A DNA stretch of 50,771 bases. Origin: a bacterium. Lineage in GTDB: Bacteria; Patescibacteriota; Minisyncoccia; UBA6257; JAGOQP01. The first letter of the stretch is position 1. Each line of letters begins with the position of its first letter. The position numbers and the translations under genes are program-made. Of this stretch, positions 16,288 through 28,708 are shown one piece after another. Under the pieces are notes generated by a model, which had not been told where the DNA came from, made no database searches, and saw nothing but the letters and a program-made list of their open reading frames with translations. The stretch spans positions 1 through 50,771 of the forward strand of contig JAKBUF010000002.1 in the NCBI GenBank assembly GCA_021844025.1. Reading direction: 5' to 3'.

Positions 16288-17505
16288 TCATAGGTTCATT
16301 GTTCCATCCGCTTGTAGTGGATACATGTTTTGTGACGACTGATGCCGTATTCCTGCCGCTAACGCAATCATTGCCGCGTTATCTTGGCAATACATAAGCG
16401 GAGGTACTATAACAGTAGCCTGGGGAAGCGCAACTTGCAATAATTCGGAAAGTTTTTTATTTGCCGCTACTCCCCCACCCACACACACGGTTTGCGCTTG
16501 GTATTCTTGCGCGGCACGCGCAACTTTTGCAACCAATGGCGCAAACGCCGCTTCTTGAAATGATGCGGAAATATCTTTTTGTAATTGAATGGGAATTTTT
16601 TTCTTTTTGAAAACCGCGGAAGGTGAATAATTATCTACATTCACTCCCTGCGAGCGTAGGTAATATAATACGGCGGTTTTTAGCCCCGCGTAACTAAAAT
16701 TATAATTTTTTTGATGTATCATGGGGCGAGGAAATTGGATTGCTTCTTTATTTCCTTCCTGCGCCAACTGTTCAATAAGCGCTCCCCCAGGATACGGCAA
16801 ACCTAATAAACGCGCCACCTTATCAAATGACTCCCCCACCGCATCGTCAACCGTTTCCCCTAACTTTTCGTATTTGGTAAGTGAATGCAATACCCCTAAA
16901 ATGGTATGCCCGCCACTCACGATAAGAGAAATCATGGGAAATAAGTGGTTAGTGGTTTTCTCTTTTTTGAGATTTTGAGTTTCGGATTTAATTGAAAATT
17001 GGAAATTGCTGCCCCCTGTAGTGAACTTTGTTCTACTACTGGGGAAAATTGGAAATTCAGTTTTCTCTGCTAAGAGAAAACTGTAGAGATGTCCCTCTAA
17101 ATGGTTCGCTCCCACCAGAGGAATGCTCTTTTTAAAATATGTCTCGTGAATTTCTTGCGCAAATTGAATTCCTGTCCACAGTGCCGGCTCAAGTCCGGGA
17201 CCAACCGTCACTGCCAATAAGTCAATCTCTTTATTTTTTACCTCTTTTATTTTTTGCATCTGTCTCCATAAAATCGGCAAATTTTTAATATGCTCTCGTT
17301 TTGCCAATGTAGGGACCACACCCCCAAACGGCGCGTGTAACTTTATTTGTGATGCCACTAAATTTTTCTCCACCGTAACTATAGGTAAAATATATTTTCC
17401 TTCTTTGTCCGCTTTTATCCGCGTTGCATCCGCATGCATCTGCGTCACTTGTACAAGTGAGAAAGAAGTCTCATCACAACTCGTCTCTATGGCCAAAATC
17501 CTCAT
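16288..17505 (-). CDS. tsaD: tRNA N6-adenosine threonylcarbamoyltransferase TsaD, carrying an in-frame repeat insertion
   Basis: MRILAIETSCDETS, HLEGH and SGGHT motifs. Start taken at ATG 17505; the track's 57-aa N-terminal extension has no TsaD counterpart. Confidence 0.9.
   Translation of the reverse strand: MRILAIETSCDETSFSLVQVTQMHADATRIKADKEGKYILPIVTVEKNLVASQIKLHAPFGGVVPTLAKREHIKNLPILWRQMQKIKEVKNKEIDLLAVTVGPGLEPALWTGIQFAQEIHETYFKKSIPLVGANHLEGHLYSFLLAEKTEFPIFPSSRTKFTTGGSNFQFSIKSETQNLKKEKTTNHLFPMISLIVSGGHTILGVLHSLTKYEKLGETVDDAVGESFDKVARLLGLPYPGGALIEQLAQEGNKEAIQFPRPMIHQKNYNFSYAGLKTAVLYYLRSQGVNVDNYSPSAVFKKKKIPIQLQKDISASFQEAAFAPLVAKVARAAQEYQAQTVCVGGGVAANKKLSELLQVALPQATVIVPPLMYCQDNAAMIALAAGIRHQSSQNMYPLQADGTMNL
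16994..17057. repeat. repeat element inside the tsaD coding frame
   Basis: GAAAATTGGAAATTGC-TGCCCCCTGTAGTGAACTTTGTTCTACTACTGGGG-AAAATTGGAAATTC. A hairpin core flanked by 13-nt direct repeats, translated as EFPIFPSSRTKFTTGGSNFQFS. Confidence 0.8.
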
Positions 17506-17640: not shown

Positions 17641-17695
17641 ACTACAATCGGGATTAAAATATATTCCCCTAAGCAACTTCCAAGATATAAAATAA

Positions 17696-18862
17696 CTACC
17701 GTATCACCCCTCCCCCCAGTACTGCCCCCTTTTTATCATAAAACACCACCGACTGACCTTCAGTTGGGAAAAGTTTATATTGGCTCTTTTTTTCTGGGTA
17801 TATAGTTAATACCTCCTCACGCATAATTACCCGTGCCTTAAATAAGGGCTGACGATACCGCACACGAGCAAACACAAAAACCTCTTCCCTGTTTTGTAAT
17901 TTATTTTTAAAATTCTCGTCTAAGAAATTTATTTGCTTGGCAGTAAAAATACTTGTATACAATGCCACATCTCCTTCCGGAGCCACCGTAATGGTATTTT
18001 TGTGCACGTCACGTGCTACTACAAACAACTCATGCCCCGTTGCATTATGAAATCCGTGCCGTTGCCCTAAGGTGTATAAAACTGCTCCCTCATGTGTACC
18101 AATTTTTTTCCCGCTAGTATCTATTACATCTCCCTGGCCATAGGGAATGTGTTGTTTAAGAAAATCAACAAACGAAAATTTTCCTAAAAAACAAACTCCC
18201 TGTGAATCTTTTTTGGTTGCGGTAAATAGCCCCGCCTTTTTTGCCAACGCGCGAACACGAGATTTTTTCAGTCCGCCAATTGGGAATAGTATCTTAGAAA
18301 ATCGCTCTCGAGGTATTTGCCATAGAAAGTATGACTGATCCTTGTTTGCATCCTTCCCCGCCTGTAATTTATATTTCGGTCCAATTGAAAATTGCCTCTC
18401 TGTGGGAGGTCTACCAAAGGGAGAAAAATTGAAAATTGAAAATTCGCGACAAAGTCGCGCATAGTGCCCCGACGCAATCGCATCCGCACCTAGCTTTATA
18501 GCTGCCTCATACAACAATCCAAATTTAATTTCACTATTACATACCACGTCCGGGTTTGGCGTAATTCCCTGCGCATATCCGTCTAATAAATATTTTACCA
18601 CCCGATTATAGTATTCTTGTTCAAAATCTAAAACATAAAAAGGGGTGTGTAGGGTTTCTGCCACCCGCCGCGCGTCGTGCGCTTCTCTGTCTTGGCATCC
18701 ATCTACATTATACCCCCGTATAAAAACCCCAAAAACCTCATACCCTTGCTTTTTGAGCAGATACGCAGCCACCGACGAATCCACTCCGCCTGATAACGCA
18801 ACGAAGACTTTAGGTTTAAGAGTGGTATCGGTATTCTTGTGTTTTGTCCAAATTCTTTCCAT
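17696..18862 (-). CDS. mnmA: tRNA 2-thiouridine(34) synthase MnmA; native 5' end displaced by the insertion
   Basis: PP-loop VALSGGVDSSVAA and KDQSYFLW motifs. The upper coordinate is the first in-frame ATG upstream of the PP-loop and is element-derived. The frame stays open further up into the recombinase. Confidence 0.85.
   Translation of the reverse strand: MERIWTKHKNTDTTLKPKVFVALSGGVDSSVAAYLLKKQGYEVFGVFIRGYNVDGCQDREAHDARRVAETLHTPFYVLDFEQEYYNRVVKYLLDGYAQGITPNPDVVCNSEIKFGLLYEAAIKLGADAIASGHYARLCREFSIFNFSPFGRPPTERQFSIGPKYKLQAGKDANKDQSYFLWQIPRERFSKILFPIGGLKKSRVRALAKKAGLFTATKKDSQGVCFLGKFSFVDFLKQHIPYGQGDVIDTSGKKIGTHEGAVLYTLGQRHGFHNATGHELFVVARDVHKNTITVAPEGDVALYTSIFTAKQINFLDENFKNKLQNREEVFVFARVRYRQPLFKARVIMREEVLTIYPEKKSQYKLFPTEGQSVVFYDKKGAVLGGGVIR
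18383..18445. repeat. degenerate repeat element inside the mnmA coding frame
   Basis: AATTGAAAATTGCC-TCTCTGTGGGAGGTCTACCAAAGGGAGA-AAAATTGAAAATTGAAAATTCG, translated as EFSIFNFSPFGRPPTERQFSIG. Confidence 0.65.
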
Positions 18863-20548
18863 TTTTGTTTGATTAATCGGACCGAGCGTGGCACCCGCAT
18901 TAAAGGTTCCGGGAAGGTCTTTTCTGCTGATTTCCCGTTCCTCAATTTTGTTGGGGAATGGTATTGTGGCAAAAATCTTGATCTTCTCGCCTTCTATGAC
19001 CACCTCATCGATTATAAGTTTGATAATATCTTTTTTTAGCCGTTCTGTCACGATTTTTGGATCGTTTATCTTACTCAAAAATCTATGGCAAGTTCCTTGA
19101 AAAAGGTCTATTTTGGCATTTACATTGTGTTGGACATTTAGTTTGTTCATCAAACCATCTCTTTCACTGATCAACTTTTCCTCACTTAGCTCAATGTCAG
19201 TTTTCTCTTTTCTGAATTCCGGAAGCGTCATAGCTTCAGCTTTGAACGCTTCGGTGATTCTTTTCTTGGCTACTTCAAGTTTGTTAATAGCACTGTTGAT
19301 ATAATCCAATCTTCCCTCTATGCTTTTTGCCCGATCTTCGTTTAGGACCGACTCATCTCGAAAAGCATTGAATACTTCCTCCGGACTGCTCAAAATTGAT
19401 TTGACCGCATTCCAGACTATTGGCTCTATTTGATCGGCTCGCACATATGGACTATGGCAGTTTTCCTGCGGAGTATTATTCATGCGACTTTTGCAGTAGT
19501 AATAAATAACACCGCTTTTTTCTTGATGACCGCGATAAACAAGCCCGTCTTTACCGCAACGGATCAGCCCTTGCAGTAAATAGGTTTGTTTGGTGCATCG
19601 TTTGGCAAACATCAGATTTTTTCTAGCCTGAAGCAAAGCTTTTTTATGCTGTTCCTCCGACACAATCTTTGGTATTGCTATGGGAAACCATTCCTCCCTC
19701 GGTCTTTTCAGTTGTCTGACTTTTGGCTTGCCTGTTCGTAAGTTGGCTACTTCAAGCTTCATTGTGTAATTCTTGCAACAATGCCAGCTTCCGGTATATG
19801 CCTCATTGGCCAAAACATTTCTTATTGTTACCTCGCTCCACCAGCCAATTGGGTATTTCTTCAAGCCTTTCATTTTCTTATTCTTTTCGGTGTTTTTCAG
19901 ACCGTCATATTTGGTTGGGATTTTTAGCTCGAAGAGTTTTGCTTGGATTTGCCGGATATTCAGCTTATCCTCGGTATACCAGTCATAGATCATTTTTACG
20001 ACTTTGGACTCGTTATCATCGAGTTCGTGTTTACCTTGTGCATAATTATATTTATAACCGAAAAGCGGCCGACCGCCGTTAAACTTCCCAGACTCAATTC
20101 TTCTTTTCATTCCTCGATGGGTTCGCTCCATAATTTTTGCTCGTTCAAATTCGCTGAATGCGCTCAGGATCGTAAAGAGTAGCTTGTCATTTGGTGTCGT
20201 ACCCAATTCTCCGGTCTTGAAGTGAATGGTGATATTTTTCTTCTTCAGTTCCTCAAGAATAATAAGCTGGTTGTATGTGTCTCGACCGATTCGATCGGCA
20301 TCATATACCAAAAAATACCCGACATCATCATGGGTTTTTATGTAATCCCGTAAAGCAGTAAGAGCTGGACGAATTAGAGTCGCTCCAGAGAATCCATCAT
20401 CAATAAAAACCATAGATTCATCTGGGACCGGTAACTTGTGGTTGTTGGCATACTGCAACATTCCACCAATGCCGTGAATTTGAGTATCTATGGTTTGATT
20501 ATTCTTTTGTTCCTCGGTGGATACCCGAGCGTATAGTACTGATTTCAT
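18821..20548 (-). CDS. large serine recombinase (integrase); no stop codon of its own, frame continues into mnmA
   Basis: Resolvase catalytic start MKSVLYARVSTEEQ, recombinase and zinc-ribbon region (CGKDG...YYYCKS), coiled-coil region, about 576 aa. A GTG start at 20581 is also possible. Confidence 0.9.
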
Positions 20549-20630
20549 ATTCTTATACTTATTTTTTGATTCACAACACACCCTACTCTATTTTTGACAA
20601 CAAGCTAAGTGTTAGTTGCCCACAGGTGCT

Positions 20631-21173
20631 TTACCGACTTTTTCCCGTCGCCACCCAGTCCAAAATCTTTTCCTCAGCTTCTTTTGGGTATTGATCTCTG
20701 GAAAGCTGTAACCGCATTTCATAGGGAATAATGTTCCAGCGATCCTCAACGGACAACTCAGCCAATTCTTCTTCACTGACGTGAATAGTTTCTTTCGGCT
20801 TGCCCTCGACCCGATCCAGTATTTCTTTTATCGCAGCTAATTTTACGGTATCGTTTGAGCTTCCCATAAGGGCAATGAGCATTTCGTTGGCTAGGCGGAA
20901 ATTTTGCTCTCTGACTCTGGCTCCGGCACGGCGGATGATAGACATTGTCTCAATATGAACCTTGTCCATTTCGGCTTCATAAAGGCGATAATCCTCACAA
21001 AGTGTTCCTGATTCCTTGAACCAATCTTTGATATTTTGTTCGCTAAATATGCCATTTCTACTTTTTGGCCACTTCTTGTTTAGAGTTTCAGCAATGCTTT
21101 GATATGAATTACCCTTATATTTCAACTCCAAAGCTAGTTTATGACTCGGTGATAAGTGTTTAATTTTTGGCAT
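20631..21173 (-). CDS. HTH protein, small-terminase-like or regulatory (tentative)
   Basis: N-terminal HTH-like segment (KLALELKYKGNSYQSIAETL). The internal motif VKLAAIKEILDRVEGKP is shared with the next ORF. Confidence 0.55.
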   Translation of the reverse strand: MPKIKHLSPSHKLALELKYKGNSYQSIAETLNKKWPKSRNGIFSEQNIKDWFKESGTLCEDYRLYEAEMDKVHIETMSIIRRAGARVREQNFRLANEMLIALMGSSNDTVKLAAIKEILDRVEGKPKETIHVSEEELAELSVEDRWNIIPYEMRLQLSRDQYPKEAEEKILDWVATGKSR

Positions 21174-21185
21174 AAAAAAGTGGAG

Positions 21186-21395
21186 TTAAGTAGAGTTTTT
21201 CTGACCTCTTTTTGGCACGATTATTGCCGGCTTTCCGTATACCCGATCAAGAATGTAGATCGCCGCCTCAAGCTTCACCATGTCGTCTTTGCTTTTTAGA
21301 AGTGAGACCAGAACCTCGGCCGCTTTTACGACATTTCTCTTGAACATATTTATGGCGTTTTCCATTTCTTCGCTGTATTTATTGTTTTTATTCAT
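21186..21395 (-). CDS. small protein sharing the VKLxA...ILDRVxGKP motif
   Basis: MVKLEAAIYILDRVYGKP parallels the motif in the product of 20631..21173. Confidence 0.5.
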   Translation of the reverse strand: MNKNNKYSEEMENAINMFKRNVVKAAEVLVSLLKSKDDMVKLEAAIYILDRVYGKPAIIVPKRGQKNST

Positions 21396-21397
21396 GG

Positions 21398-21886
21398 TTA
21401 TATTTTCATTGAATTTATTAATACTTCTTTATCCCTCACCAACGCATCAAAGGACTCGGTCTCGTGTTCTTCTGCACAAGTTCGTAGATATCGAAGTTCG
21501 TCTAAGGCACTTTGTCTGTTGCACCAATCCTCGTATGTCTTGAGATTGGGACCGACCGCCCAATACGCACCGGGAATATTGTGTTTTACATATCGGCGAG
21601 ATATAGCTCGAGTTTCCAGTAAGTGTTGAACTATACCGGCGTCGGTCAGTCCGGTAACGTTGTTGTATACTCGTCTGGGATTTTGGCTTTCTGGAAATTC
21701 TCGGCCACCCATTCTGAAGGTTTTTATTATTAGTTTTGGTTCGCCATAATACTCCAACGAGTTTTTAAGTGGCACAGTTTTTAACTGTTCAAGCAAAGTC
21801 TCAAAATCTCTGATCTCTTTTCTAAACTTAGGATTATCCAGATCACATCCGCTTTTTATATTCTCTTGTTTTTCAGTGTATTTCAT
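21398..21886 (-). CDS. hypothetical protein (element)
   Basis: 162-aa ORF whose start overlaps the upstream gene's stop by 4 nt. No motif recognised. Confidence 0.6.
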   Translation of the reverse strand: MKYTEKQENIKSGCDLDNPKFRKEIRDFETLLEQLKTVPLKNSLEYYGEPKLIIKTFRMGGREFPESQNPRRVYNNVTGLTDAGIVQHLLETRAISRRYVKHNIPGAYWAVGPNLKTYEDWCNRQSALDELRYLRTCAEEHETESFDALVRDKEVLINSMKI

Positions 21887-22650
21887 ACGATGAATTTAAA
21901 GAGGGTTTCCAGAGTATATTTCTTAAGCCAGCCGGCTTTGACTGCTTCTTGGATTTTCTTAAATCCCTCGATCAGTCGTTTATCCTCAAAGGGTTCAAGG
22001 TTCTTGGCTGGTCTGACATTTCGTCTGATAAAAGCCTCCCACTGATTTTTGGTTTGAAAATCCGGTTCGATCGTATCTGCCCAGTTGCCAATAATGCGAA
22101 TATGTTTATGGGGGCTTGTCTCGCACCATTTCACAAATTCTTTGAGTGTCATCGGGACCTCGGCGATCTGTGCTTTAACTTCTTCTTTCTTCTTCAAGGG
22201 TTCTTCTTTGTGCTCAATGGTTGAACGCTTATCGTTCACCAGTTGCGCGCTTTCATTCATTGGTTGAATGCTTAAAGGTAAGCGTTCACCATTTGAACGC
22301 TTTGATTTTTCCTCGTAATGCCTGATATTCAAAGACCACAAATCAATGATCCGGTATTCGATCGTCTGCTGATTTGTCTCTCCGGTGGCTCTTTTACCGA
22401 TAACCTCAATCCAACCTCGCTCGACCAGCTTTTTCTGATACTTGGCTACGGTGTTTCTTGAGCAATCCAATCTTTTAGCAATTTCCATCGCCGACATCCA
22501 GCACGTGCCTTCTTCGCCAGCCACGCGCTTCATGTATAAATAAATGGCCTGTTCGTAGACCGTCGAATGATTGACGATGTAGTTCGGGATAATCGTGAAG
22601 TATTTCCGGTCTCCGCTTTTGTCTATGATCTTGAATGGGTCGTTTCGCAT
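21883..22650 (-). CDS. winged-HTH protein, replication-initiator or organiser-like (tentative)
   Basis: FTIIPNYIVNH...YLYMKRVAGEEGTCWMSAMEIAKRLDCSRNTVAKYQKKLVERGWIEV is a typical N-terminal wHTH of plasmid and phage replication proteins. Confidence 0.6.
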   Translation of the reverse strand: MRNDPFKIIDKSGDRKYFTIIPNYIVNHSTVYEQAIYLYMKRVAGEEGTCWMSAMEIAKRLDCSRNTVAKYQKKLVERGWIEVIGKRATGETNQQTIEYRIIDLWSLNIRHYEEKSKRSNGERLPLSIQPMNESAQLVNDKRSTIEHKEEPLKKKEEVKAQIAEVPMTLKEFVKWCETSPHKHIRIIGNWADTIEPDFQTKNQWEAFIRRNVRPAKNLEPFEDKRLIEGFKKIQEAVKAGWLKKYTLETLFKFIV

Positions 22651-22654
22651 AGAT

Positions 22655-22915
22655 TTATTTTGACTCGTGCAAAAGAGCCTTGAGTTTACGGATAGCGGAA
22701 ATGAAATCCCTCACACTGACTTCAGCATCCTCGGCAAAGTTATATTCATCAGTGAGTATCTGTCGGCTTGGCGAGTCAATAAACACAAAGGACCGACGAT
22801 CTAAATCATCGGTTTGATCTAAACCAACCAGCTGGATACCTTTGGCCAACAAAAAACAGCTCAAATAGAAGCTGGTGGTGCTATATGTTGGCGTGTTTGA
22901 TTTTTTGGTTTTCAT
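22655..22915 (-). CDS. small phage/plasmid-type protein (DUF5659-like, from memory)
   Basis: Start taken at MKTKKSN. FYLSCFLLAKGIQLVGLD...FVFIDS resembles the DUF5659 pattern and needs HMM confirmation. Confidence 0.45.
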   Translation of the reverse strand: MKTKKSNTPTYSTTSFYLSCFLLAKGIQLVGLDQTDDLDRRSFVFIDSPSRQILTDEYNFAEDAEVSVRDFISAIRKLKALLHESK

Positions 22916-23069
22916 AGTTATTTTTATTGTTAATTTGATTATTTTTATTGTTTTCCGGTTCTGGTAATGCAAGCAATAGATCCCACAGCTGACGCAGTCG
23001 GTCTTTCTTGTCTGGCGATTCCCTATAAATAAATTCCGTTTGGAATTTAGGAAATCTTTTTATTCTCAT
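22881..23069 (-). CDS. small ORF at the head of the replication/regulatory operon (weak)
   Basis: 62 aa with a low-complexity Asn/Lys tail. It overlaps the next start. Confidence 0.3.
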   Translation of the reverse strand: MRIKRFPKFQTEFIYRESPDKKDRLRQLWDLLLALPEPENNKNNQINNKNNYENQKIKHANI

Positions 23070-23089
23070 CTTGATTTTTTTACATAAAA

Positions 23090-23139
23090 CGCAAAAAGCT
23101 CGCGATCGATTACCACAAATGTGATATCCAATCGCGAGC
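23090..23139 (-). terminator. putative terminator after the envelope-protein operon
   Basis: 9-bp stem GCTCGCGAT/ATCGCGAGC (23098-23139), followed on the minus strand by TTTTTGCGTTTTATG. The 24-nt loop is long for an intrinsic terminator. Confidence 0.4.
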
Positions 23140-23262
23140 CCTTGAACTCGGAATCCCTTTCAGGTCTGCCCCGTGAGGCAAAAATTTATTTAGTTGTTAC
23201 AGTTATTATAACATTGTCTGAAAATTCTTTGCAAGAAGATCGGCTGTGTATAAATATCATAA

Positions 23263-23979
23263 TTAGAAAATATCGTCAGGAGAACTTTTGGCTAATTCAC
23301 TTATTTCATTCTCCAACCTAGAATATTCTTCCTTAGCTTGTTCTTTGGAAATATCCTGCTCCCATTGGGAGTGCAAAAGCCCTTCAATAAAAGGACTTTT
23401 GCTTTTAAGTCTATCCTGGTGAATCCTTTCCAAAACTAAAAGTTTTTTAGTCCATTCATTTAGCTTTGGTAAATCATTGTTTAGAAGATAGTCCATCTTA
23501 CTTGCAAGAAAAGTAAAATTTACAGGCACTACGGGCTGACCATTTATATATAAATCCTCAAGGCGTGTCAGCGTGTGGTTGGTAGAAATTATATTGAAAT
23601 TCAGTCGGTCTATACTCATCCGATATGAAAAAACTTTGTTAGTTAAATCCAAACTACCTAACTCCATTTCGATTTCTTCAGGTATAGCAAACGTACTTAA
23701 TCTATTGCTAGTAGTGTGATTCTTTTTTAGAGATGCTGAAGTATCTTTTATTACAGTTTCAATAACACCAAACTCGTGAAGGTGTTTCATTAGTACTCTA
23801 TCCAACTTAACTAAAGTATTTTTATGCTGAACAAAACGTTCGCGCCGTTTGGTTATCCAGTATGCAATAAGCCCAAAAACAAAAGCAAAAAAGGCACCGG
23901 CAAACGCACCCCAGAAACTTGAAAGGCCTGCTGAATCGTTAGAATGATTAAGGAAGTGGTGGTAATAATAAAAATCCAT
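23263..23979 (-). CDS. N-terminally anchored membrane protein, unknown function (element cargo)
   Basis: One TM segment (FWGAFAGAFFAFVFGLIAYWI) followed by KRRERF, which suggests a cytoplasmic C-terminal domain. Confidence 0.7.
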   Translation of the reverse strand: MDFYYYHHFLNHSNDSAGLSSFWGAFAGAFFAFVFGLIAYWITKRRERFVQHKNTLVKLDRVLMKHLHEFGVIETVIKDTSASLKKNHTTSNRLSTFAIPEEIEMELGSLDLTNKVFSYRMSIDRLNFNIISTNHTLTRLEDLYINGQPVVPVNFTFLASKMDYLLNNDLPKLNEWTKKLLVLERIHQDRLKSKSPFIEGLLHSQWEQDISKEQAKEEYSRLENEISELAKSSPDDIF

Positions 23980-23985
23980 AAAGCA

Positions 23986-24786
23986 TTACTGCGTCAGCTT
24001 ATAGGCTTTCTGTTCTTCATAGGTTTGAAATGTGAGACTTAATTGAAGAACTTTTGCCGCCAAAAGGTAGGTATTCTTATTGTAATCATTGAGAGAAGAT
24101 CCGAACGCTCTCTGAATTTCGCTAATGAGATCCTGTCGTTGGCTTGACGACAATGAGTATTTAATTGGACCCGTGGCCTCGCCTTGCTCAACAGGTAACT
24201 GAATCAAACCTTTGGTAATGACGAGAAGGATTTTGTTTTGGAACAGATCTTTTTGAAGTGTATCCTGTGCCGCGGCGTATTGTGCAATATCGTACTTTAT
24301 TTGTTGTGGATTAAGCGTATCTGGTGTTGCGGTACGCAATGCTTCACTGATCTTTTGATTAGCGTTTTTTAATGTAAGAACATCAGCGTAAAGTAAAGTC
24401 GTGACAGACTTAATGCTGTCATCTTTATCATTAACATATGACTGCAAAGAAGACACTGCACCCATGAGGTCTGAGTCAATCCCTAACATTGCTGTTGTTT
24501 GTTGTATATCCTGTGAAGACGTGGGGTATCTAGTCTGAGCGTCAGTCAATTCTTGAGTTGTAAGATAAAGACTATGTAGTACATTAATTATCGAGGATAA
24601 ATAGGAATACATGTGATCCGCAGACGCACTTACTTGCCCATTCGTCTTATTTTCTACAGCAGAAACATTTCCATTTGTAGTTGAGGATTGAGTTGCAGAA
24701 TTGCTAGAACTTTGCCAAGAAAAATAAATAATCGCTAAAATGATAATAATGATAACTGCTATTCCAACTGATGTTTGTTTTTTCAT
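23986..24786 (-). CDS. anchored or secreted protein, unknown function (element cargo)
   Basis: N-terminal TM or signal segment (VGIAVIIIIILAIIYF), a Ser/Thr-rich linker and a helical remainder. Confidence 0.7.
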   Translation of the reverse strand: MKKQTSVGIAVIIIIILAIIYFSWQSSSNSATQSSTTNGNVSAVENKTNGQVSASADHMYSYLSSIINVLHSLYLTTQELTDAQTRYPTSSQDIQQTTAMLGIDSDLMGAVSSLQSYVNDKDDSIKSVTTLLYADVLTLKNANQKISEALRTATPDTLNPQQIKYDIAQYAAAQDTLQKDLFQNKILLVITKGLIQLPVEQGEATGPIKYSLSSSQRQDLISEIQRAFGSSLNDYNKNTYLLAAKVLQLSLTFQTYEEQKAYKLTQ

Positions 24787-24793
24787 AAGTTTT

Positions 24794-25738
24794 TTATGGG
24801 GTAGAAATTTTATTTGTATCTAAATGAACAGTCAAAGAGGGGCCCGAATTCGCTGAATTAATATGGACAGTACTTAAATCGACAAATGCAATGTCTGTCG
24901 GCCATTCATACATATCGGATGGAACATAGAGGATAAAATACTTACCTTGCGTCTTATCAAGACCAACAACCACTCCTTTGAAGTACGAGACGAATTTATA
25001 ATTGTTGTTTTCTAGCGAACCAGTGACTGTCGTCCCGTTCCATTGGTCGAACAAATTTGTGTCATAGTAAGTAAACTTCACCGGTACGGCGTAGTTCATC
25101 ATGGCAGTCCAAATGTTTTCGTTATCGAGTTGCCATTTTTGAACGGCATTATCAGCGGAATTTACATCCAAATTTTGCTGACTAGTATGGGCAATCTTAG
25201 GTGATTCTGCTATTTGCTGAGTGAGATAATCATATACAGCTTTATTGCTCTGTACGTCGCTATTTACCTGACCGGGTTGATTTATATTTCCATTTCCACC
25301 TGAAACACTCATGCTGTACAGGTGTGCCTGTGATGGCGAAAAAAGATTAAATGCAACTGTTCCAGCCGCACTTCCATAACTTTCCGTTACGAAGTAAATA
25401 TAATACGAACCACCGAGCTTAACTTTCTTTGCATCTGACGGACATTCTAGTGTTCCACAAACAATTTGGACCGATTCTGATTGTTCTTGCCATAAATCCG
25501 CAACTTGTTTCAAAACCAAAAGCCGTGACTCGTTATATTTACCATCAGCAATACTTCCAACAATGTAATAATCGCCGTTATCTCGGACCGCAATAGAGAA
25601 CGTTGGATTTTTTACATATTGATGTTGGACAATTTGAGCCGCTTCTTGATCCGACATCGTTGGCTTTTCATAAAAAGCAAAAAATGCACCGACAGCAACT
25701 ATGACGATAACTATTCCGATCCAGCTTTGTTTATTCAT
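24794..25738 (-). CDS. anchored or secreted protein, unknown function (element cargo)
   Basis: N-terminal TM or signal segment (WIGIVIVIVAVGAFFAF) and a beta-rich remainder. Confidence 0.7.
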   Translation of the reverse strand: MNKQSWIGIVIVIVAVGAFFAFYEKPTMSDQEAAQIVQHQYVKNPTFSIAVRDNGDYYIVGSIADGKYNESRLLVLKQVADLWQEQSESVQIVCGTLECPSDAKKVKLGGSYYIYFVTESYGSAAGTVAFNLFSPSQAHLYSMSVSGGNGNINQPGQVNSDVQSNKAVYDYLTQQIAESPKIAHTSQQNLDVNSADNAVQKWQLDNENIWTAMMNYAVPVKFTYYDTNLFDQWNGTTVTGSLENNNYKFVSYFKGVVVGLDKTQGKYFILYVPSDMYEWPTDIAFVDLSTVHINSANSGPSLTVHLDTNKISTP

Positions 25739-25743
25739 AAAAT

Positions 25744-26919
25744 TTATTTAAATAACCAGCTAAACATTCTCTGATACCACGGTATATTGTTTCCTGCCCC
25801 TGAACCAGATTGAGTAGTGGTTGCGTCTTTTTTGACCGATAAAGTAGGAGTAATTACTTTGGTCTCTGTTTTAGGCGGAGTCGGTGTTGAGATTGTTGGT
25901 GGCGGAATACATGCTGTTCTTGCACTATTCCATACATAGTTGGTTTTACAATTGCAGTTTAAGTTTCCATCATTCGTCTTTGTGCCGTCCCAGCTAACAT
26001 TTACTCCAAAATCATCTTGGCAGAGTTGGTCATTTGATTTAATTGGGACAACAGGTTCAATTATGCAACTTGTCCTCTGGGTATTCCAAATGTAGCCGGT
26101 TTTGCAACTGCATCCCAATCCTTTTTCAACAGTGCCAGTTCCATCCCAATTACTATTTATTCCAAATTCATCATTACACCTTTGATCATTTGTTTTGTTG
26201 GGAACAGGGACGCAACCATCGTTCGTTGTATTAGGCTGATATCCAGTATTACATTGGCACTTGGTTGAGTCGGTGACTGAGGTATGTGAATTAATCGGAC
26301 AGGTATTTTGAGGTGCTGAATATGCTGATGTGTTTGAATAAGAAGTTCCTTGATATACACAGCTTGAACCACTTACCACATAGCCATAATTACATTTGCA
26401 CGATGATACCCCATCATAATAAGAATTGAGTGGGCATGTGGGCGTTGTGGGAGCAGTATAAGTTCCAGTATAAACACAACTTGTCTTGTTGTAATTTACG
26501 CTATAGCCGTAATTACATGAGCATTTACCAGACGAATTAGCAGAAGAATTCGCTGGACAAGTGCTGTATGTATTTCCACTTCCGTATGTCGTATTGCCGA
26601 TAGATTGATAGCTACTACCATCGCTTCCATATATTGAATTTCCTATGCTTTGATAAGAAGTGCCGTTGCTACTATAAGTCGTATTACCGATCTGTTGATA
26701 GGATGTTCCGTCATTGCCGTATGTTGTATTTCCGATGGTCTGGTAACTACTTCCGTCACTCCCATATATCGAGTTACCGATTTGCTGATAACTAGTCCCA
26801 TCATCGCAATATGTTGAATTTCCTATTCTTTGACAACTTGAGGCAATAACATCATTTGCGTTGAATGCAAACAGAGTAAGAAAAAATAAAATTGGTATAA
26901 AAAATATTATCTTTTTCAT
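25744..26919 (-). CDS. secreted repeat protein: 15-aa tandem repeats plus EGF-like Cys-rich modules
   Basis: Signal peptide. Then (SYQxIGNxxYGxDGx) six times, then CPxNS...CxCNYGY...C three times and NDQxC.DxFG.N..WDG....C.CKT.Y.WN...T.CI twice. ATG 26919 follows a GAGG; the track used a GTG at 26928. Confidence 0.75.
   Translation of the reverse strand: MKKIIFFIPILFFLTLFAFNANDVIASSCQRIGNSTYCDDGTSYQQIGNSIYGSDGSSYQTIGNTTYGNDGTSYQQIGNTTYSSNGTSYQSIGNSIYGSDGSSYQSIGNTTYGSGNTYSTCPANSSANSSGKCSCNYGYSVNYNKTSCVYTGTYTAPTTPTCPLNSYYDGVSSCKCNYGYVVSGSSCVYQGTSYSNTSAYSAPQNTCPINSHTSVTDSTKCQCNTGYQPNTTNDGCVPVPNKTNDQRCNDEFGINSNWDGTGTVEKGLGCSCKTGYIWNTQRTSCIIEPVVPIKSNDQLCQDDFGVNVSWDGTKTNDGNLNCNCKTNYVWNSARTACIPPPTISTPTPPKTETKVITPTLSVKKDATTTQSGSGAGNNIPWYQRMFSWLFK
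26566..26835 (-). repeat. 45-bp (15-codon) tandem repeats inside the secreted-protein gene
   Basis: Period read from the translation: S46, S61, S76, S91 and S106 each begin SYQ.IGN..Y. Confidence 0.7.
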
Positions 26920-26924
26920 AAACC

Positions 26925-27146
26925 TCACTTAATAAAATAGTTGATGTCTTTGTTGTAGATTTTCGCAAAAGTTTGGAGTTCAACAACGTCAACCCTTTGC
27001 TGTCCCGACTCAACATTAGAAATGTGCGATTGTGGTCGCCTCAATTTCTTAGCGACTTGCACCTGAGTCAATCCTGCCTCTTCACGAGCCTTTCGCAGTC
27101 GCTCGACAAAATAGGCGTATTCCTTTGTTCTTATTGACCTAGTCAT
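26925..27146 (-). CDS. XRE-family HTH transcriptional regulator
   Basis: LTQVQVAKKLRRPQSHISNVESGQQRVDVVEL is a typical Cro/CI-type HTH. Its stop lies 5 nt before the next start. Confidence 0.85.
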   Translation of the reverse strand: MTRSIRTKEYAYFVERLRKAREEAGLTQVQVAKKLRRPQSHISNVESGQQRVDVVELQTFAKIYNKDINYFIK

Positions 27147-27216
27147 ATACTACTATGTTCTATCTAAATATTCAATATCCAAAGTTTAGATATTGTGTAT
27201 ATGAGCCAAAAACGCT

Positions 27217-27258
27217 AACTTTATAAAGTTCTAGCATTTTGCATAACTTTATAAAGTT
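27217..27258. promoter_or_regulatory. two identical 14-bp palindromes (AACTTTATAAAGTT) in the divergent XRE/Fic intergenic region
   Basis: Copies at 27217-27230 and 27245-27258, 28 bp centre to centre. Each is a perfect palindrome. Confidence 0.6.
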
Positions 27259-27301
27259 TGGTAATATGGTAAATATCCATTACAAGCTAAATTGAGCTTT
27301 T

Positions 27302-28234
27302 ATGAATACACGTCAAAAACTAGAAGTAATTCAAAGAATGTTGGGTTTGACCCAGACAAAGCTAGCTGAAAGGTTTGGCGTGTCTTTCGCCGCTTTCAAC
27401 AGTTGGTGGACCGGTAAATCCAATCCCCGACCAAAAATGCAGGCTTCCATTGATGAGCTGTTTTTGGAAGTGACCGGACAAAAAACAATTCCCTCTGATC
27501 AACTGACAGCTAAAAAACAAGCCCTCCAACAAAAGTCCGGAGAATATAAAAGTGTTATAAATGAAATTTTAAATAACCCCGATATTCGTGACCAGTTTAT
27601 TTTGAAACTCACCTACCACAGTAACAGTATTGAAGGCAGTACACTTACCGAGCCGGACACTGCCGCAATCCTTTTTGACAACGCAGCTTTACCGAATAAA
27701 AGTCTGACCGAGCAACTAGAAGCAAAAAATCACCAGACGGCTTTAAATTATTTATTTGATCATATCGCCAAGAAAGAAAAAGTTGACGAGGCACTTGTGC
27801 TCAAACTCCACAGCATTCTCATGAACGGCGTTCGTCCGGACGCCGGTGTATATCGCAATCATGGTGTCAGAATCACCGGCGTTAATTTGCCAACAGCGAA
27901 CTACATGAGTGTTCCGAAATTGATACCAGAGGTTATGGCTCGCATCACTGAAAAAACTAAGGATATTGTGGCCTTATCCGCTGGCGTTCACAGTAAGTTT
28001 GAACAAATCCACCCATTCGGAGACGGCAACGGTCGTGTTGGTCGTTTGCTTATGAATGCCATGCTACTTAGTGCAAACTTTACTCCGGCCATCATTCGTC
28101 AGGAACAAAAACAGCTTTACTACACCTATCTTTATAAAGCTCAGACCAAAGAAGATCAGAGCCAATTGGAGGATTTTCTCTGTGAAGCAATTATGGACGG
28201 ATTCAAAATCTTGGACCGGACGGATATTCGGTAA
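27302..28234 (+). CDS. HTH-Fic protein (probable AMPylase, class II-like with an N-terminal inhibitory motif)
   Basis: Fic motif HPFGDGNGRVGR (28010-28045). Upstream SNSIEG fits [ST]xxxE[GN]. N-terminal HTH LGLTQTKLAERFGVSFAAFNSWW. Confidence 0.9.
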   Translation: MNTRQKLEVIQRMLGLTQTKLAERFGVSFAAFNSWWTGKSNPRPKMQASIDELFLEVTGQKTIPSDQLTAKKQALQQKSGEYKSVINEILNNPDIRDQFILKLTYHSNSIEGSTLTEPDTAAILFDNAALPNKSLTEQLEAKNHQTALNYLFDHIAKKEKVDEALVLKLHSILMNGVRPDAGVYRNHGVRITGVNLPTANYMSVPKLIPEVMARITEKTKDIVALSAGVHSKFEQIHPFGDGNGRVGRLLMNAMLLSANFTPAIIRQEQKQLYYTYLYKAQTKEDQSQLEDFLCEAIMDGFKILDRTDIR

Positions 28235-28391
28235 TTAATACCAGTCATATTTGCTTAAGTTAAGCAAATCGTCCCAAGCTCTCAAAATTCGGTCACAATC
28301 GTTTTCAGTTTCCGAATCGGTACAAATCTCTTACTCTTGATATAAAGCTCGTCACACGGGCACCTAAAGGATAATAAACTAAATACAAAAA

Positions 28392-28411
28392 CGCCCGAGT
28401 GGGCGATTTTT
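28392..28411. terminator. bidirectional hairpin terminator at the right end of the element
   Basis: AAAAA-CGCCC-GAGT-GGGCG-ATTTTTG. An A-run precedes the GC stem and a T-run follows it. Confidence 0.6.
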
Positions 28412-28432
28412 GTTTAAACTTTCTTTTCTTGT

Positions 28433-28537
28433 TTATCTGTTGACTAAAGCATGGTCAATCCCTAGCTGAATCTTTAACCCTTCATTTGTGTATGTCACTA
28501 CGCAGATTTTAAGTTTTTTCTGCCTAAAAAACGCCAT
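28433..28537 (-). pseudogene. displaced 5' end of mnmA (first 10 codons) fused to element sequence
   Basis: ATG GCG TTT TTT AGG CAG AAA AAA CTT AAA | ATC TGC GTA ... TAA. The CTT AAA is in the same frame as at the left junction. Confidence 0.6.
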
Positions 28538-28639
28538 GCGAACACTATATCAAAATTTAGGCATAAGAAAAGCCACACCAAAAAACAGCCATTCCAGCTG
28601 TCTTTTTATATTTGAAAATTAAATAATTAAAAATTTATT

Positions 28640-28688
28640 GAAAATTGGAAATTGCCGTGCCCCGTAGAGAATTTATTCTTCTACTGGG
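28640..28688. repeat. GAAAATTGGAAATTG plus hairpin repeat (intergenic copy 2)
   Basis: GAAAATTGGAAATTGCCGTGCCCCGTAGAGAATTTATTCTTCTACTGGG, followed by ATAATTGGAAATTG. Confidence 0.85.
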
Positions 28689-28708
28689 ATAATTGGAAAT
28701 TGAAAGAG

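Follow-up and report, generated by a model that had tools for sequence, protein, structure and literature searches.

A large serine recombinase element in mnmA of a patescibacterium, with the attachment site inside the recombinase gene

The mnmA locus and the attachment sites

The DNA analysed here (the window) is the whole stretch of 50,771 nucleotides (nt) at positions 1 to 50,771 of contig JAKBUF010000002.1 (GenBank assembly GCA_021844025.1, Patescibacteriota), in which an element of a large serine recombinase (LSR) lies within mnmA, a gene for tRNA thiolation. At 17696..20581 on the minus strand the listing of open reading frames (ORFs) gives a single ORF of 961 amino acids (aa), or 950 aa counted from the ATG at 20548. 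In the 961-aa ORF the Pfam search detected the Resolvase, Recombinase and Zn_ribbon_recom domains within residues 15-394 and three MnmA domains from residue 591, the MnmA profile being entered at position 2 of 202. This domain layout means that a complete LSR is joined to an almost complete MnmA. The first-pass annotation, made from the sequence of the stretch, had already read the ORF as a recombinase followed by MnmA, which the ORF listing and Pfam bear out; the recombinase part, put there at about 576 aa, is actually 583 codons long as far as the crossover (18801..20548, minus strand; Pfam, PDB matches), and its last ~30 nt are the P arm of the phage-type attachment site, attP. The remainder, 17696..18800 on the minus strand, belongs to the host mnmA; it starts with the third base of codon 13 and ends with the stop, and its PP-loop, PRC-barrel and C-terminal domains are complete according to Pfam.

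The catalytic domain of the recombinase (PF00239, E = 1.7e-29) occupies residues 15-166 of the 961-aa ORF, and the other two LSR domains are PF07508 (E = 2e-12) and PF13408 (E = 1.4e-13). Matches among the PDB entries were found to the catalytic domains of the gamma-delta resolvase and the TP901-1 integrase, and the nucleophile, Ser10 of the LSR, sits in YARVSTEEQ. In the AlphaFold model, for which 30 fusions were aligned, long helices of low confidence at 410-494 fit the LSR zinc ribbon with its coiled-coil insertion. The MnmA fold starts at residue 580, with a predicted local distance difference test score (pLDDT) of ~90, after the low-confidence stretch 529-577. The model fits two modules, LSR and MnmA, joined by a linker. 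By its catalytic domain, its Recombinase and zinc ribbon domains and the logic of its attachment sites the protein is a member of the LSRs, with predicted recombination activity.

Contigs carrying an identical EF-P have the host gene order TraG-like ATPase, efp and mnmA, with tsaD and ftsW farther along, and in these contigs mnmA is intact and follows efp directly. The empty site was found in the close relative L010 (GCA_023474645.1), where ...AAAAAACTTAAAATCTGCGT meets TGCGTTATCAGGCGG (in a longer reading, ...ATGGCGTTTTTTAGACAAAAAAAACTTAAAATCTGCGT meets TGCGTTATCAGGCGGAGTGGATTCG...). When the flanks of the window were joined, the left one to 28500 and the right one from 18800 downward, 119 of 122 nt were identical to this empty site. 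The left junction tracks the empty site through ...TCTGCGT and then departs from it, and the right junction tracks it from CGTTGCG... on; CGT is the sole stretch common to both junctions and the empty site, and there are no long direct repeats at the ends of the element. Since CG is palindromic and serine recombinases typically exchange 2 nt, the exchange took place most likely at GT, that is, on the minus strand, at 28500..28501 in attL (three-way comparison of the junctions with the empty site) and at 18801..18802 in attR (the same comparison and the attR alignment). With one GT counted, the element spans 18801-28499, or 9,699 bp, and splits mnmA in codon 13, shortly before the codons of the PP-loop motif SGGVDSS.

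From these junctions attB was reconstructed as AAAATCTGCGTTGCGTTATC (also CTTAAAATCTGCGTTGCGTTATCAGG) and attP as AAAGTCTTCGTAGTGACATAC (also CCTAAAGTCTTCGTAGTGACATACACAAATG). In attP, read by eye, the GT is centred in GTC-TTC-GT-AGT-GAC, a symmetric GTC-N3-GT-N3-GAC. A dyad CTTAAACC/GGGTTAAAG was also considered and was rejected, because its motifs lie 10 and 19 nt from the crossover and the symmetric feature is GTC-N3-GT-N3-GAC. An alignment of 10 distinct attL and of 17 distinct attR sequences places the GT at the junction throughout, and their P and P' arms are conserved.

The displaced native 5' end of mnmA is located at 28500..28537 on the minus strand; it consists of codons 1-12, beginning with the ATG, and of the first two bases, GT, of codon 13, holds the host B arm of attL, and is near-identical to the intact mnmA start in L010. 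The restored MnmA would begin MAFFRQKKLKICVALSGG (MAFFRQKKLKICVALSGGVDSS), which agrees with the closest orthologues, e.g. MFFKKQKKLKICVALSGG and MFFFKQEKLKICVALSGG; orthologous MnmA proteins begin MFF.KQKKLKICVALSGG. The native upstream region (28538..28600, minus strand) is conserved in the element-free L010 and L014; in it lie a hairpin, the putative terminator of efp, and, 7 nt from the ATG, a TATAGT box. Its sole terminator-like prediction is a plus strand hairpin at 28585-28601, and the minus strand reading of this hairpin, followed by a T run, would terminate efp. The native mnmA has no Shine-Dalgarno sequence near its ATG, and the TATAGT box may be the promoter of a leaderless mnmA mRNA. 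In the integrated state this promoter would drive only a 34-codon stub, up to a terminator at 28405-28392. In the efp-mnmA spacer the window also has a 34-nt insert, CCAGTAGAAGAATAAATTCTCTACGGGGCACGG, at about 28668-28701 (minus strand), with the inverted repeat GTAGAGAAT/ATTCTCTAC, which is absent in all four relatives that span the point.

When the ends of the element are joined, the LSR ORF stays open for 21 codons past the crossover (...KPKVFV-VTYTNEGLKIQLGIDHALVNR) to the TAA at 28436-28434, and encodes 604 aa in total. These codons (...V VTYTNEGLKIQLGIDHALVNR) lie in the P' arm of attP, at 28434..28499 on the minus strand according to the attP reconstruction. Just past the stop a terminator hairpin, CGCCCACTCGGGCG with a T run, is predicted at 28392..28405 (minus strand, with a prediction on the opposite strand as well), and the same hairpin sequence is found 3' of the tail in L030 and L037. 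In the integrated state, the 21 tail codons are swapped for the whole MnmA, giving a 950-aa LSR::MnmA, and the 12 displaced codons run as the 34-codon stub into the same terminator.

A scan of the JGI metagenomes with the P' arm yielded 15 loci, all of them attL, in which differing mnmA starts (MKGKITKKVLV, MRKGDKKKKVFV, MPRAKKIKVFV and others) run through the GT into the arm and a short open tail. The 12 distinct tails collected from these loci, the window, L028 and L030 are of two types, and all are open, with a stop within 22-39 codons. Synonymous codon differences equalled or outnumbered non-synonymous ones in 9 of 15 tail pairs of equal length (e.g. 10 vs 5, 11 vs 4), which suggests that translation of the tail takes place in the excised form. 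The right junction of L028 was left out of the frame analysis on account of a scaffold gap (Ns) in the 3' part of its LSR.

Spread of the fusion and the mnmA 5' end in the recombinase tail

Searching with the LSR part revealed at least 34 protein clusters (90% identity) of LSR::MnmA fusions of 733-958 aa, all but one of them of at least 884 aa, with all LSR domains and the catalytic domain of MnmA. Most of the full fusions also hold the C-terminal MnmA domains; P0149 (733 aa) stops before them. In about 20 further clusters a C-terminal LSR remnant is still in frame with MnmA. Among species-representative genomes the hosts of the element are Zambryski-, Ryan-, Taylor-, Doudna- and Uhrbacteria and other Paceibacterota, with the remnant form in Azambacteria, and the relatives of the window MnmA bear the annotation Paceibacterota or Patescibacteria. 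To the LSR of the fusion the next LSRs show no more than 33% identity, and no close homologue of it was found in any other context, save for fragments at contig ends and P0156, a variant with a divergent C-terminus. All junctions read ...LK(P/R/K)KVFV followed by [AG][LMV]SGGVDS, and the same junction was present, base for base, in independent NCBI, JGI, ENA and Logan assemblies from many samples and hosts. Judged by these comparisons, the chimera is a conserved and widespread design and not an accident of one genome.

Among 30 full-length fusions the mean pairwise identity was 90% for the LSR halves (82-99%) and 47% for the MnmA halves (34-76%), with a correlation of r = 0.02. Since the identity of the LSRs is high, that of the MnmAs is low and the two are uncorrelated, the recombinase has moved horizontally among hosts with old, divergent mnmA genes.

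The last codons of the LSR before the crossover can take the place of an mnmA 5' end. Native MnmA proteins of Paceibacteria start M..KK(V/I)(F/L)V[AG][LM]SGGVDSS; the P arm of the element encodes KVFV in the same frame, and its tail, ...LKPKVFV, reads in frame into ALSGGVDSS. This spare 5' end, a Met (ATG at 18862-18860) and 19 codons, MERIWTKHKNTDTTLKPKVF, occupies 18803..18862 on the minus strand, and the Met is kept in all 30 aligned fusions. MnmA proteins of ordinary length starting exactly at this Met (M-x-RIW...KVFV) were found in P0119 (MARIWNKHKQINAPLKRKVFVAMSGG), P0050 (MNRIWNRYTTLKPKVLVALSGG) and P0086 (MERIWTKNKKVNSAIAARVFVGMSGG), and there is no element at their loci. In L056 and L057 mnmA lies 110 nt after efp in the host gene order, P0050 is in efp-mnmA synteny, and the mnmA of L054 (P0119) begins 12 nt beyond the stop codon of a gene for a UvrD-like protein. 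The DNA at the P0050 and P0119 starts is close to that of intact elements; when the L054 tail was compared by eye with the element tail of L020, about 4 of 62 bases differed, and the homology ends a few bases upstream of the ATG. On this evidence the element-free tail starts are deletion scars: after loss of the element, 20 codons from the end of the LSR were kept as the 5' end of mnmA. Since the scar mnmA genes begin at the tail Met, this Met is a usable start.

The mnmA of the window itself is full length and shares ~97% nt identity with those of L009 and L010. Its ratio of non-synonymous to synonymous substitution rates (dN/dS) is 0.095 against L009, and the gene shows no decay; against the shorter L010 fragment, a noisier comparison, the ratio is 0.49. 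In other lineages 113-400 residues of an LSR remnant are retained in frame and the catalytic domain is gone.

In the remnants P0172, P0173, P0182 and P0188 in-frame inserts of 20-60 residues (e.g. PTSPRLRRAG...GGSALGGNATN) interrupt the linker on one or the other side of the tail Met, and the frame is still open into MnmA. L050 and L042 were considered as minimal intact elements and were rejected, since the ORF listing showed them to be decayed copies with a diversity-generating retroelement. In the decayed mnmA elements of L052 (5907-9588) and L050 (4258-7913), of which only an LSR remnant is left, the retroelement cassette lies between attL and the remnant. The L052 cassette comprises ORFs of 330 aa (Pfam RVT_1), 115 aa (bAvd) and 613 aa, and L050 was likened to it by ORF sizes alone. 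The old site of the element seems now to be used by other mobile DNA as a place to insert. A diversity-generating retroelement (bAvd and reverse transcriptase, beside a 291-aa ORF) was also observed between mnmA and tsaD in the relatives L001 (12771-14186) and L009 (13538-14953). The corresponding interval of the window, 17677-17695, is without it, and tsaD comes directly after mnmA.

Alternative explanations and the proposed mechanism

The first-pass annotation had placed the exchange at the hexamer CTTAAA in codon 10, with a restored gene beginning MAFFRQKKLKPKVFVALSGG. The short ORF at 28537..28433 on the minus strand (MAFFRQKKLKICVVTYTNEG...) is indeed present, with 34 codons, the hexamer does occur in frame at both ends (28513-28508 and 18820-18815), and CTCTTAAA is a conserved piece of the P arm of the element. 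However, the L010 empty site has ...CTTAAAATCTGCGTTGCG..., i.e. KLKICVAL, where this crossover predicts KLKPKVFVAL; the six closest full-length orthologues (P0001, P0002, P0005 and P0007-P0009) carry (I)CVALSGG; and the B arms of other hosts are without CTTAAA, L009 having TTGAAA there. An in-frame hexamer shared by two 45-nt stretches of such composition was obtained in ~6.5% of shuffles. A crossover at the hexamer is highly improbable, refuted as it is by the L010 empty site, and the exchange is assigned to the GT 12 nt downstream, in codon 13. The empty site AAAAAACTTAAACCTAAAGTCTTC, the circular junction ACCACTCTTAAAATCTGCGTAG and the N-terminus MAFFRQKKLKPKVF... predicted earlier do not match the L010 empty site either, the N-terminus (..LKPKVFVAL..) being two residues too long. 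Apart from the position of the joint, the proposal that an element of ~9.7 kb splits the 5' end of mnmA, and that joining its ends rebuilds the gene with its own upstream region, agreed with L010 and with the N-termini of the orthologues. The mnmA 5' end of the relatives, on which the annotation had made its proposal depend, proved in L010 to be related to 28508-28537, which favours an element. The ORF crossing attP, the conserved and widespread fusion and the tail as a replacement mnmA 5' end were points missing from that annotation.

Elements of LSRs that split a gene and restore it on excision are well established, and the window element might likewise be a gene-intervening switch, as in skin/sigK, SPbeta/spsM or the comK prophage, by which mnmA would be off until regulated excision and the fusion would have no function. 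The lack of an evident promoter or ribosome-binding site at the internal Met would agree with this, as would a possible impairment of MnmA by a 580-aa N-terminal extension. Yet a target that is non-functional while the element is integrated is not what the comparisons point to: the complete catalytic core of MnmA is in frame in every copy, in at least 34 clusters and without decay, and the dN/dS of the window mnmA is 0.095. Moreover, the element-free scars have the tail Met as their only possible start, so that the tail is a working 5' end there, and the remnants hold the frame though the catalytic domain, hence the ability to excise, is lost. A switch of this kind is improbable. It is quite improbable, too, that the window copy is an immobile, domesticated chimera, in which LSR::MnmA would be either an elongated MnmA or a bifunctional protein that has taken on a new role, even though the excised form was detected nowhere (IMG/VR, JGI metagenomes, protein collection), decayed remnants are fused to MnmA in many lineages and no directionality factor was recognised among the element proteins. 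Against a fixed state stand the presence/absence polymorphism between genomes with identical EF-P and ~97% identical mnmA, the full-length window LSR with all its domains and with both att arms matching the family consensus, and the ~90% identity of LSRs across hosts whose MnmAs are more than 50% different, which requires recent horizontal movement. Finally, the window is part of a metagenome-assembled genome, and an LSR element might have been joined to mnmA in a chimeric contig by assembly or binning; since the identical junction recurs in independent assemblies from four sources and both junctions fit one empty site, the chance of such an artefact is practically negligible.

We consider it very probable that the window holds a 9,699-bp LSR element in codon 13 of mnmA, with attP inside the LSR gene and with a tail keeping MnmA in use. 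Several observations weigh against this interpretation. The excised form was not found: no attP junction was present in IMG/VR (0 matches to the P' arm) or in the JGI metagenomes (15 of 15 loci being attL), and the exact 604-aa protein is absent from a collection of 15 billion proteins, in which the restored MnmA has no exact match either. The many copies in frame do not count as independent evidence that the frame was selected, because the design of attP makes in-frame fusion automatic. The ~10 codons at the head of the tail might be conserved for recognition of the DNA by the protein and not for coding; the coding signal of the tail is confounded, because these ten codons coincide with the DNA site of the recombinase. 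Upstream of the internal Met no Shine-Dalgarno-like run was seen by eye, and promoter-like matches there and in the 3' part of the LSR gene are at chance level only; mnmA may be transcribed from the LSR promoter. The LSR part of the AlphaFold model, built on 30 near-identical LSR halves, is weak (mean pLDDT 60), and no directionality factor, relaxase or capsid genes were recognised in the element with Pfam and PHROG.

As far as sequence can establish them, the site, the crossover, both att sites, the attP-spanning ORF, the two state-specific products, the recurrence, the horizontal spread and the scars are established. According to the mechanism that we propose, the tail would be a built-in replacement 5' end, through which MnmA would still be produced, and would stay active, in cells carrying the element, as the whole fusion or as a product that starts at the internal Met (Met563). 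The element would still excise, and reversal with a directionality factor would restore both genes. The tail may have evolved, or may have been captured, as a replacement 5' end.

A more far-reaching combination, that the C-terminus swap is a control device, that it amounts to translational addiction, and that the element family is a main vehicle of gene exchange across Patescibacteria, is unlikely to hold as a whole. If it were true, the free form with its tail of 21-39 residues would be competent for integration, and the integrated form, tethered to MnmA, would have a changed activity, stability or directionality. Since MnmA is read through the recombinase ORF, nonsense and frameshift mutations of the LSR would be polar on the housekeeping MnmA, and the selfish gene would be shielded from decay.

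Core, cargo and relation to known systems

Between the LSR gene and the cargo lies a conserved core module (20631..23199, minus strand), defined by collinear DNA homology with L015, L018, L019, L021, L024, L026, L027 and L029; counted with the LSR, the core measured by inter-locus homology extends from about 23199 to 18801 in the window, ~4.4 kb. Its order on the minus strand is a 62-aa ORF, a DUF5659 protein (22655-22915; Pfam), a replication-initiator-like HTH_36/DnaD_N protein (21883-22650; Pfam, with a PHROG replication initiation match), a 162-aa ORF, a small helix-turn-helix (HTH) ORF (21186-21395; 69 aa in the ORF listing, 59 aa in another gene call) and a 180-aa ORF adjoining the LSR. 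The small HTH ORF matches weakly, in its HTH-like region, the PHROG small terminase subunit family (E = 3e-8); it might point to packaging by a helper phage, or might merely be a DNA-binding or directionality protein. Apart from this match, the element proteins gave no capsid, packaging, relaxase or type IV secretion matches in Pfam and PHROG, and a blastn search of the core module against phage and plasmid collections gave no match.

The cargo of the window element consists of a Fic-domain protein with an N-terminal HTH (27302..28234, plus strand; PF02661, E = 7.6e-19), an XRE-family HTH protein (26925..27146, minus strand; Pfam HTH_31, HTH_3) and a four-gene operon (23263..26928, minus strand) for predicted secreted or membrane proteins of 394, 314, 266 and 238 aa, with hydrophobic N-terminal segments in their translations. 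Together with the Rep-like protein of the core, these XRE, Fic and envelope proteins are the accessory content that had been described at first sight. No significant Pfam or PHROG family was found for the four envelope-type proteins. The 394-aa protein (25744-26928, minus strand), with a signal peptide, tandem GN(S/T)xYGSDG(S/T)SYQxI repeats, Cys-rich modules and faint EGF/TIL-like Pfam matches, is probably a cargo protein of the cell surface. Part of the window cargo is also present in the element of the Taylorbacteria contig L024; L018 carries HsdR, Vsr, a cytosine methylase and an ATPase, and L019 an AlwI-type restriction-modification system. For L015, L018 and L019 the 10 kb upstream of each fusion were searched with blastn, with blastn using short words and with tblastn using the tail peptide, and no left end was found; either these elements are longer than the fetched flank, or their left end is lost.

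Absence of the host repeat GAAAATTG from the element, likewise proposed earlier, was confirmed: the window has 13 copies and none is inside the element, where 2.5 would be expected, a difference that is weakly significant. The repeat (CAATTTCCAATT / GAAAATTG) was also observed in frame within genes, at 18383-18440 in mnmA and 16990-17050 in tsaD, and at 28640-28700. In the window MnmA it is translated as REFSIFNFSPFGRPPTERQFSI, TsaD has a similar stretch, and the same MnmA loop elsewhere in Patescibacteria reads REFPISNFQFP (P0002, P0174).

With this element the Patescibacteria gain a defined family of mobile elements, present in a broad range of hosts, for which the att sites are exact, the core is conserved and the cargo (Fic, restriction-modification) varies. 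The design is unusual among serine recombinases: attP lies within the recombinase gene itself, integration fuses this gene in frame to its target, and a spare 5' end for the target is carried along. Some MnmA proteins of ordinary length bear an N-terminus left by the element. An LSR with defined attB and attP and with a target motif conserved across a phylum currently without genetic tools is also a possible tool. In full-text searches of the literature on LSRs together with MnmA, Patescibacteria or the candidate phyla radiation (CPR) no description of such a system was found. MnmA does not appear in a large survey of LSRs from isolate genomes, and one paper notes, with nothing further, Erysipelothrix elements that integrate near mnmA.

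The element resembles the known LSRs (phiC31, Bxb1, A118, TP901-1, SprA of SPbeta) in the three domains, in the N-terminal nucleophile Ser, in a recombinase gene adjoining attP, in the site-specific exchange of attP with attB at a non-palindromic dinucleotide in their centre and in short att sites with imperfect dyad symmetry. It differs from them in that the ORF crosses attP, so that the two states have two proteins, a 604-aa LSR and an LSR::MnmA of ~950 aa, and in its target, the PP-loop-encoding start of mnmA in Patescibacteria. Capsid and packaging genes of prophages, or the relaxase and type IV secretion genes of conjugative elements, were not matched here by Pfam and PHROG.

An attP within the integrase gene, with a new 3' end supplied by integration, has been described for IntP/IntX of Mx8 and also for SSV-type integrases (PMC6070905, PMC4383910). 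The Mx8 Int is a tyrosine recombinase according to Van Houdt et al., as cited in PMC4383910. In the window element, too, attP is inside the recombinase ORF and the C-terminus is altered on integration, and the idea of the swap as a control device has parallels in Mx8 IntX and in engineered fusions of integrases with directionality factors. The targets of Mx8 are tRNA genes, and the C-terminus that its Int gains is a short peptide of unrelated sequence. The likeness is thus one of layout only, the present enzyme being a serine recombinase and its new C-terminus an entire housekeeping enzyme in frame.

SXT/R391 elements in prfC and dusA-specific elements (IMEVchUSA3) insert in the 5' end of a housekeeping gene and supply a promoter and an N-terminus of their own, by which the gene stays expressed (PMC8409611). 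Like them, the element in mnmA lies in the 5' end of a conserved gene and encodes an in-frame N-terminus for it, and dusA and mnmA are both tRNA-modification genes. The SXT and dusA elements have tyrosine integrases, and their new 5' end comes from a separate promoter and start, not from the integrase ORF. Here, by contrast, the replacement 5' end is made up of the last 20 codons of the recombinase.

In skin/SpoIVCA of B. subtilis, SPbeta/spsM, the comK prophage of Listeria and fdxN/XisF of Anabaena an LSR element lies in a coding gene, and precise excision rebuilds the gene. Those insertions inactivate the target until excision, whereas in the present case the catalytic core of MnmA is in frame behind a usable start. 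Unlike in the gene-intervening LSR elements, the tail of this recombinase can serve, as the scars show, as a permanent 5' end of the target gene.

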